Assembly (NCBI RefSeq): GCF_048403405.1
Contig: NZ_CP183129.1
Length of the DNA stretch: 64,000 nt
Direction: 5' to 3' (one strand)
Origin: Escherichia coli
GTDB lineage: Bacteria; Pseudomonadota; Gammaproteobacteria; Enterobacterales; Enterobacteriaceae
Shown: in pieces, positions 28,371-29,164 of the stretch
How the letters are laid out: every line of letters starts with the position of its first letter
How positions within the stretch are numbered: position 1 is the first letter of the stretch
Notes under the pieces: generated by a model
What the model was told of the DNA's origin: nothing
Seen by the model: only the letters and a program-made list of their open reading frames with translations
Database searches by the model: none
Position numbers and translations under genes: made by a program

Positions 28371-28402
28371 GGGTGCGACACCTATTGTCGCCCCCTTGTC
28401 TT
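28371..28402 (+). terminator. Imperfect hairpin (GGGTGCGAC.../...GTCGCCCCC) between yadN and the chaperone gene; possible intra-operon attenuator
   Basis: 9-bp stem with one mismatch followed by TTGTCTTG; position analogous to subunit-chaperone attenuators in other fimbrial operons. Confidence 0.3.
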
Positions 28403-28432
28403 GAAAACAATTCATGTCATGGATGGTATATT

Positions 28433-29164
28433 TTGTTAAATAAAAAGAATATTGTCGCATTATGTGTTGCCAGTAGTATGGCATTTAGTATGCCTGTTAT
28501 GGCTGATATTGTTATTTCCGGTACACGCGTCATTTATAAAAGTGATCAAAAAAGCGTTAGCGTACGCCTGGAGAATAAAGGCAATAGCCACCTGTTAGTA
28601 CAAAGCTGGCTGGATACCGGTGACGATAACGCTGAGCCGGGAAGCATTAATGTACCATTTACGGCAACACCTCCCGTTTCACGTATTGATGCTAAACGCG
28701 GTCAAACCATCAAATTGATGTATACCGGCAGCACCGTACTCCCCAGCGATAAAGAAAGCGTATTCTGGTTTAACGTGCTGGAAGTGCCCCCAAAACCAGA
28801 TGCTTCAAAAGTAGAGAATCAGAGCCTGTTACAACTGGCTTTCCGTACCCGTATCAAGCTGTTCTATCGTCCGGCAGGATTAAACGGTAACCCGTCTGAA
28901 GCACCATTAGCCCTGAAATGGAAATGGGCTGAAGGGAAGTCTGGCCTGAGTGTATATAACCCAACGCCTTATTACGTCTCTTTCAATAACGCAGAGTTAA
29001 TCGCTGGCGGTAAGTCGAACCCGCTCAATGTAAAAATGGTTGCACCGAAAAGCGAAGAGATTTTCACCATAAGCGGTTCAGGCGGGAAAGCAACGTCAGG
29101 AAAGGTACATTTCTCCGCGATTAATGATTTTGGCGGCGCAATTGAAGGCGATGTCAATTTGTAA
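28433..29164 (+). CDS. yadV: Periplasmic fimbrial chaperone (PapD-like), YadV/EcpD
   Basis: ORF 28373..29164 (GTG at 28373); no in-frame ATG precedes the signal peptide LLNKKNIVALCVASSMAFSMPVMA, so start tentatively placed at TTG 28433. Confidence 0.7.
   Translation: MLNKKNIVALCVASSMAFSMPVMADIVISGTRVIYKSDQKSVSVRLENKGNSHLLVQSWLDTGDDNAEPGSINVPFTATPPVSRIDAKRGQTIKLMYTGSTVLPSDKESVFWFNVLEVPPKPDASKVENQSLLQLAFRTRIKLFYRPAGLNGNPSEAPLALKWKWAEGKSGLSVYNPTPYYVSFNNAELIAGGKSNPLNVKMVAPKSEEIFTISGSGGKATSGKVHFSAINDFGGAIEGDVNL

Follow-up and report, generated by a model that had tools for sequence, protein, structure and literature searches.

The chaperone gene of a six-gene chaperone-usher fimbrial operon in Escherichia coli has lost its ATG start codon and appears to be translated from a pair of adjacent non-ATG codons, ATT 28430 and TTG 28433. 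The gene lies in a stretch of 64,000 nucleotides of E. coli DNA (contig NZ_CP183129.1, assembly GCF_048403405.1), which is called the window in the following, and on its sequence the chaperone is a divergent allele or orthologue of yadV/ecpD of the Yad operon. We assign a probability of roughly 0.8 to the reading that translation starts at this pair, mainly at TTG 28433 and to a minor extent at most at ATT 28430. According to the comparison with relatives, the pair results from two changes in this lineage, ATG to ATT and TTT to TTG in the following codon, which shifted the start by one codon. In the proposed mechanism, the Shine-Dalgarno (SD) motif GGAUGG (28421-28427) would position the ribosomes and UUG 28433 would be the main site of initiation, AUU 28430 contributing a small share at most. 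The resulting pre-protein would possess a normal Sec leader of 24 or 25 residues that is cut after VMA, and the mature chaperone would begin with DIVISGTRV. This is an ordinary non-ATG start and not a broken gene, and it poses no new question on translation or fimbrial biology; specific to it is a demonstrable one-codon start shift within a species.

Loss of the ancestral start codon

In the chaperone frame, the relevant codons are arranged in the order GTG 28373, TTG 28385, ATT 28430, TTG 28433, TTA, AAT, AAA, AAG, ATG 28478, GCT 28502 and GAT 28505. From the upstream stop as far as 28478, neither the sequence nor its translation shows an ATG in frame. An earlier reading of the window, which we refer to as the sequence-only reading, had stated that only non-ATG candidates precede the signal peptide; this was confirmed, with TTG 28385 as one more candidate that it had overlooked. 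It was also correct in that initiation at GTG 28373 would place 20 more residues before the TTG 28433 codon, and in that the first ATG lies in the hydrophobic core of the signal peptide, where it encodes the methionine of “SSMAFS”.

The gene was compared with five other E. coli yadV alleles, each annotated with 246 residues from an ATG. Around the start these alleles read ...C(A/G)GG(G/A)ATGGTTT ATG TTT TTY AAC..., whereas the window reads ...CATGGATGGTAT ATT TTG TTA AAT.... In a MAFFT alignment, no gap occurs from the SD motif across the signal peptide and into the mature part of the protein; ATT 28430 coincides with the ATG in each of the five alleles, and TTG 28433 with TTT, the second codon. 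Position 1 of the NCBIfam profile NF007398 likewise aligns with the ATT codon. ATG 28478 corresponds to an internal methionine, Met17, that is conserved in four of the other alleles and replaced by valine (GTA) in the fifth. Also three syntenic orthologues located 3' of folK, from Citrobacter portucalensis, a Hafnia metagenome-assembled genome (MAG) and one other assembly, start with ATG. As all five E. coli alleles and all three orthologues share this codon, ATG is the ancestral state. The claim of the sequence-only reading that the gene relies on a start other than ATG is borne out by this comparison, since both the alignment and the profile indicate that the ancestral ATG is truly lost and is now ATT 28430. 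A start at TTG is not shared by any of the examined orthologues, all of which use ATG.

At an identity of at least 99%, the chaperone allele is carried by 460 of 5426 complete E. coli genomes (8.5%), and about 4160 further complete genomes possess alleles that are only about 73% DNA-identical over the same stretch. The segment 28414-28447, which comprises SD motif, ATT and TTG, is the same in 460 of 460 genomes with the allele. A miscalled base that conceals an in-frame ATG is thereby excluded, as ATG occurs at neither codon; a query with both codons set to ATG matched every genome with at least two mismatches. No intermediate allele with an ATG was found among the 460 genomes, and an exact 23-mer scan with one genome per species did not give a match. 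The allele represents a clean natural case of one-codon start turnover, from ATG TTT to ATT TTG, that is fixed in about 8% of the complete E. coli genomes.

Ribosome binding, signal peptide and the more distant candidates

The duplex of the SD motif with the 16S rRNA 3' end, which we use as the measure of SD pairing, is predicted at -6.8 kcal/mol in the window allele versus -5.6 to -8.0 kcal/mol in the five ATG alleles. The opening cost, which is the cost to open positions -15 to +12, amounts to 7.8-8.3 kcal/mol at the ATT/TTG pair, versus 5.2-9.1 kcal/mol for the ATG alleles and orthologues, and to 13.5-21.0 kcal/mol at the other three candidates. The GGA core of the SD motif lies 9 nt before TTG 28433, which is still a workable spacing, and the gene thus offers an in-frame UUG at working SD distance in an accessible initiation region. 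An unusual structure that sequesters the SD motif was considered and rejected, as the fold of 73 nt is unexceptional (z = -0.72) and the opening cost lies within the range of the ATG alleles. Three out-of-frame ATGs on the plus strand (28414, 28419 and 28423) open reading frames of 6-9 codons that extend over the chaperone start, with TAA at 28437-28443. They were considered as upstream open reading frames for coupling or re-initiation; none has an SD motif of its own, and ATG 28423 simply belongs to the GGATGG SD motif that is conserved in all E. coli alleles.

As read from charge, hydrophobic region and V-x-A motif in the sequence, a normal Sec leader is obtained only with a start at ATT or TTG. 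From TTG it comprises 24 residues (“MLNKKN...”) with a hydrophobic core of 12 residues, and from ATT it comprises 25. The net charge before the hydrophobic window is +2, the mean Kyte-Doolittle value of this window is 2.36, and valine and alanine occupy positions -3 and -1. The YadV chain of the solved structure PDB 5GHU begins with DIVISGTRV, and the window protein matches it with E = 1.5e-113. Since cleavage between VMA and D would generate a mature end DIVISG, the mature protein would be the same with a start at ATT or TTG, and N-terminal sequencing of the mature protein could not tell the two starts apart because the signal peptide is removed. The protein itself is a PapD-like chaperone, with PF00345 (PapD_N) at residues 27-151 (3.7e-43) and PF02753 at residues 175-238 (3.1e-19). 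It scores 417.9 bits with the NF007398 equivalog, the cutoff of which is 285, and positions 1-246 of this profile align end to end with residues 1-244 of the ATT model.

These properties also bear on the more distant start codons. Initiation at TTG 28385 or GTG 28373 would result in proteins of 259 or 263 residues with a leader of 40-44 residues. Both codons are canonical near-cognate starts in the correct frame, the AAGGGTG before 28385 resembles an SD motif (-4.3 kcal/mol), and gene calls in GenBank and Logan often give the 259-residue model (at least 1000 contigs). However, both codons are buried in a hairpin of -20.6 kcal/mol and cost 17-21 kcal/mol to open. Nothing equivalent to the extension exists in any allele or orthologue, all of which have leaders of 24-25 residues. 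GTG 28373 lies in the hairpin stem, has only a distant and weak SD motif, and is GAG in two of nine same-allele strains. We therefore rejected both codons and regard an upstream start as very improbable.

A start at ATG 28478 would mean that the 228-residue RefSeq model WP_001328782.1 is correctly annotated. This codon is the sole in-frame ATG near the 5' end, it was chosen by the Prokaryotic Genome Annotation Pipeline (PGAP) in six of ten inspected RefSeq records, and in a spread sample about 46 of 60 records have no coding sequence over 28396-28470. The codon is not preceded by an SD motif (0.0 kcal/mol), though, its opening cost is 13.5 kcal/mol, and it coincides with the internal leader methionine of other alleles described above. 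Moreover, it leaves a leader of nine residues without a charged n-region or a full core, which would keep a periplasmic chaperone in the cytoplasm, and such a cytoplasmic product conflicts with the purifying selection on chaperone and usher described below. This candidate was rejected as well, and it is the least probable of all the readings discussed here.

Selection on the chaperone and integrity of the operon

Selection was assessed with nine strains that carry the same allele, all of them with ATT-TTG. Within this lineage the chaperone gene shows eight synonymous and three nonsynonymous changes, corresponding to a ratio of nonsynonymous to synonymous rates (dN/dS) of about 0.11 (p = 6e-4 versus neutrality). 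The usher gene shows 17 synonymous and two nonsynonymous changes (dN/dS 0.03), and one of these two is the nonsense codon of the window. For all genes except the adhesin gene, 32 synonymous and eight nonsynonymous changes were counted (dN/dS 0.07, p = 2e-14). Purifying selection on a periplasmic chaperone implies that the protein is made and exported, and thus that initiation occurs upstream of the leader. From these sequence comparisons, the chaperone is under purifying selection and is very probably expressed, exported and functional. The view of the sequence-only reading that the state of the start cripples the operon could therefore not be maintained: ATT-TTG is fixed in 460 genomes, the SD motif is retained, the opening cost is ordinary, and the chaperone is constrained. 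It is plausible that translation is lower than in the ATG alleles, and published codon-swap data would suggest a few-fold difference.

One might suppose instead that the start was simply lost and that, within a decaying cryptic operon, the chaperone gene has become a pseudogene that is not translated. The ancestral ATG is indeed gone, Yad operons have been described as cryptic (Wurpel et al. 2013), and there are sporadic lesions, namely the usher nonsense codon, an usher frameshift in one record and a chaperone variant with a deletion of 36 residues. Yet in 460 genomes the reading frame, the SD motif and the features of the signal peptide are all intact and do not vary, and a full-length operon at an identity of at least 99.5% is present in 458 of these. 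The relaxed selection or secondary lesions after start loss that characterize a pseudogene were not found, as the dN/dS values of chaperone and usher demonstrate. We consider a pseudogene to be highly improbable and retain a functional chaperone with a non-ATG start.

The usher nonsense codon is independent of the chaperone start. It occurs in only four of 5426 complete genomes, which include strains 4621, MS 69-1 and TUM1226, and is therefore a recent clonal lesion; in strain 4621, PGAP flags the usher with “internal stop”. Fimbriae are probably not assembled in the source strain, and this would be owing to the usher stop rather than to the chaperone start.

The tip-adhesin gene (33043-34293, plus strand) differs from the other genes of the operon, as it shows three synonymous and eight nonsynonymous changes within the lineage (dN/dS about 0.77). 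This polymorphism fits the high adhesin variability that has been reported for Yad.

Choice between the adjacent ATT and TTG codons

While the localization of the start to the pair follows from the leader and the initiation region, the choice between the two codons is one that we infer, and it is most likely TTG. TTG starts about 3% of the E. coli genes, and in codon-swap measurements UUG belongs to the class with 10-100% of the AUG level, whereas AUU reaches 1-2% of AUG (bioRxiv 10.1101/063800). Confirmed AUU starts in E. coli are restricted to infC and pcnB (bioRxiv 10.1101/063800). A full-text literature search on start codons of fimbrial chaperones and on TTG in this context found nothing.

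Several points weigh against a functional gene with TTG 28433 as principal start. It is the ATT, and not the TTG, that is homologous to the ancestral start and that preserves its distance from the SD motif. The SD core (ATGGA) is a little weaker than the AGGGA of the K-12-type alleles, and the SD motif is mostly paired in the predicted ensemble, with a probability of being unpaired of 0.04 versus 0.25-0.33, at an ordinary total opening cost. The selection test is small, with nine strains and 11 chaperone changes, and is made without correction for transitions and transversions. It also assumes that the polymorphisms postdate the loss of the ATG; as they are confined to the window allele, they likely arose after this loss. 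Finally, Yad operons have been reported to be cryptic under laboratory culture conditions (Wurpel et al. 2013).

The first of these points would suit an alternative in which initiation takes place principally at AUU 28430, the start of the 244-residue RefSeq model, and in which the chaperone would join infC and pcnB as a rare AUU gene, its translation being very low and sensitive to initiation factor 3 (IF3). Besides the exact positional homology with the ATG of the other alleles, it is in line with this alternative that NF007398 aligns from position 1, that PGAP picks ATT in four of the ten inspected records, and that the two genes mentioned are proven AUU-initiated genes of E. coli. On the other hand, a canonical UUG follows directly 3' in frame and within working distance of the same SD motif, and according to the codon-swap measurements UUG initiates about 5-100 times better than AUU. 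The change of TTT to TTG furthermore looks like a compensation for the lost ATG. We think that AUU 28430 is unlikely to be the principal start. It is a little less likely still that AUU 28430 and UUG 28433 act as tandem weak starts or that AUU predominates. In the tandem or AUU-predominant case the chaperone gene would be the third natural AUU-initiated E. coli gene, and low, IF3-sensitive translation would set a chaperone-to-subunit ratio different from that of the ATG-start Yad alleles. Initiation mainly at TTG 28433 remains the preferred interpretation.

Consequences for annotation

The non-ATG start is annotated inconsistently, and as a result five start models of the chaperone are in circulation in public databases, with 244 residues (ATT), 243 residues (TTG 28433), 259 residues (TTG 28385), 228 residues (ATG 28478) and 263 residues (GTG 28373). 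The majority model of 228 residues is almost certainly wrong. This is the main consequence of the present analysis, because this model, which accounts for about three quarters of the sampled RefSeq records, is devoid of a usable signal peptide and would mislead work on localization or expression. The exact chaperone protein is absent from the protein-search listing, and its 90% cluster is represented by a sequence of usher length.

Locus and further features

The window is part of the E. coli chromosome, and over 15.5 kb around the chaperone start it differs from strain TUM14771 by four single-nucleotide polymorphisms (SNPs). The whole operon is identical to that of strain 4621, a blood isolate from Houston. 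On identical DNA, PGAP annotates major subunit, chaperone, usher, minor subunits and adhesin between folK and panB, with the chaperone as the second gene of the operon. The features are compiled in Table 1.

Table 1. Features around the chaperone start and in the fimbrial operon of the window. SD pairing and opening cost are defined in the text.
Feature	Position	Strand	Remarks
Gene order			hrpB-thpR-sfsA-dksA-gluQRS-pcnB-folK, six-gene chaperone-usher fimbrial operon, panB-panC
Intercistronic stem-loop, then U-rich tract	28367..28399	+	RNA fold -20.6 kcal/mol, z = -6.5; after major-subunit stop 28338-28340
Candidate start GTG	28373..28375	+	SD pairing -2.8 kcal/mol, 18 nt away; opening cost 17.0 kcal/mol; 263-residue model
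Candidate start TTG	28385..28387	+	SD pairing -4.3 kcal/mol; opening cost 21.0 kcal/mol; 259-residue model of some gene callers
SD motif GGATGGT	28421..28427	+	Common to ATG-start alleles; invariant in 460 genomes
Candidate start ATT	28430..28432	+	SD pairing -6.8 kcal/mol; opening cost 8.3 kcal/mol; 244-residue model
Candidate start TTG (probable principal start)	28433..28435	+	SD pairing -6.8 kcal/mol; opening cost 7.8 kcal/mol, lowest of all candidates; 243-residue model
Sec signal peptide	28433..28504	+	Cleaved between VMA and D; n-region with KK, h-region IVALCVASSMAF, c-region SMPVMA
Candidate start ATG	28478..28480	+	SD pairing 0.0 kcal/mol; opening cost 13.5 kcal/mol; 228-residue model
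Mature PapD-like periplasmic chaperone	28505..29164	+	Including stop; PF00345, PF02753, NF007398, PDB 5GHU
Usher TAA nonsense codon	29799..29801	+	TCA to TAA, Ser201stop; one of 4 SNPs versus TUM14771 in 15.5 kb

The stem-loop upstream of the chaperone start is found at the same position in the K-12-type allele, where it has an unrelated sequence and a predicted energy of -17.5 kcal/mol (z = -6.0). A scan for consensus terminators did not call the stem-loop at 28367-28399, which has one stem mismatch. According to the folding prediction, it is probably a partial terminator or an mRNA-stabilizing hairpin. The occurrence of a hairpin at the same place in both alleles suggests a conserved attenuator or mRNA-stabilizing element that sets the subunit-to-chaperone ratio.

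Two further variants of the chaperone were observed elsewhere. One (P0001) is a recombinant in which the N-terminal two thirds correspond to the window allele and the C-terminal third is of the K-12 type. The other (P0002, P0005) carries a deletion of 36 residues, which is in frame and situated in the first domain, and is found on at least 13 contigs.

Yad fimbriae have been equated with Sta of Salmonella (Wurpel et al. 2013). In ExPEC, yadN was induced by human serum (PMC13245861). In a survey from 2026 that applied a threshold of 80% to the usher (HtrE), Yad was scored as present in only 5% of phylogroup D (PMC13245861). At the yad locus, the Yad-negative phylogroup D genomes of this survey probably contain the window allele. 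The presence of a divergent, intact yad-type operon (27700-34400) at folK-panB in 460 genomes bears slightly on reports that one phylogroup is “lacking” Yad fimbriae.

Comparison with known systems

The closest well-known counterpart is yadV (ecpD) of E. coli K-12. Both genes share the locus folK-yadN-yadV-htrE-...-panB, the two PapD domains, the SD motif GGATGG and the cleavage between A and DIVISGTRV, and the proteins are about 75% identical. The DNA is only about 73% identical, however, and the K-12-type alleles start with ATG TTT and possess a leader of 25 residues (MFFNTKHTT...), whereas the window allele has ATT TTG and the leader (M)LNKKNIV.... The operons differ also between usher and adhesin, where the window contains two genes (561 and 600 nt; 31818-32991, plus strand) and the described Yad operon contains three (yadM, yadL, yadK). 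The syntenic chaperones of C. portucalensis, the Hafnia MAG and the other assembly are about 59% identical to the window protein and have an AAGGAA SD motif before their ATG. Their leader of 24 codons with the motif “MLN.KK” corresponds in length and motif to the product of a TTG start in the window.

In UUG-initiated E. coli genes, a near-cognate start is located behind an SD motif and is read as methionine by the initiator tRNA, with an efficiency moderately below that of AUG. The chaperone gene resembles these genes in that it has no in-frame AUG able to give a functional product, the first ATG (28478) being located in the core of the signal peptide. It differs from ordinary UUG genes in that its UUG is derived and lies one codon 3' of a mutated ancestral ATG, and the use of UUG is predicted here from the sequence.

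One of the two established AUU genes, pcnB (25546-26943, plus strand), is found 2.9 kb upstream in the window. It reads ATT TTT ACC CGA, corresponding to (M)FTR..., and PGAP places its start at ATT 25546, while a mechanical list of open reading frames gives TTG 25525 instead. Neither infC nor pcnB has a canonical start next to its AUU, and the AUU of these genes has a regulatory role, as is known for infC. As in the window allele, AUU is found in infC and pcnB where relatives have AUG. In contrast to these genes, AUU is not the only available start of the chaperone, since UUG 28433 adjoins it in frame and directly follows the AUU, so that use of the AUU is not required.
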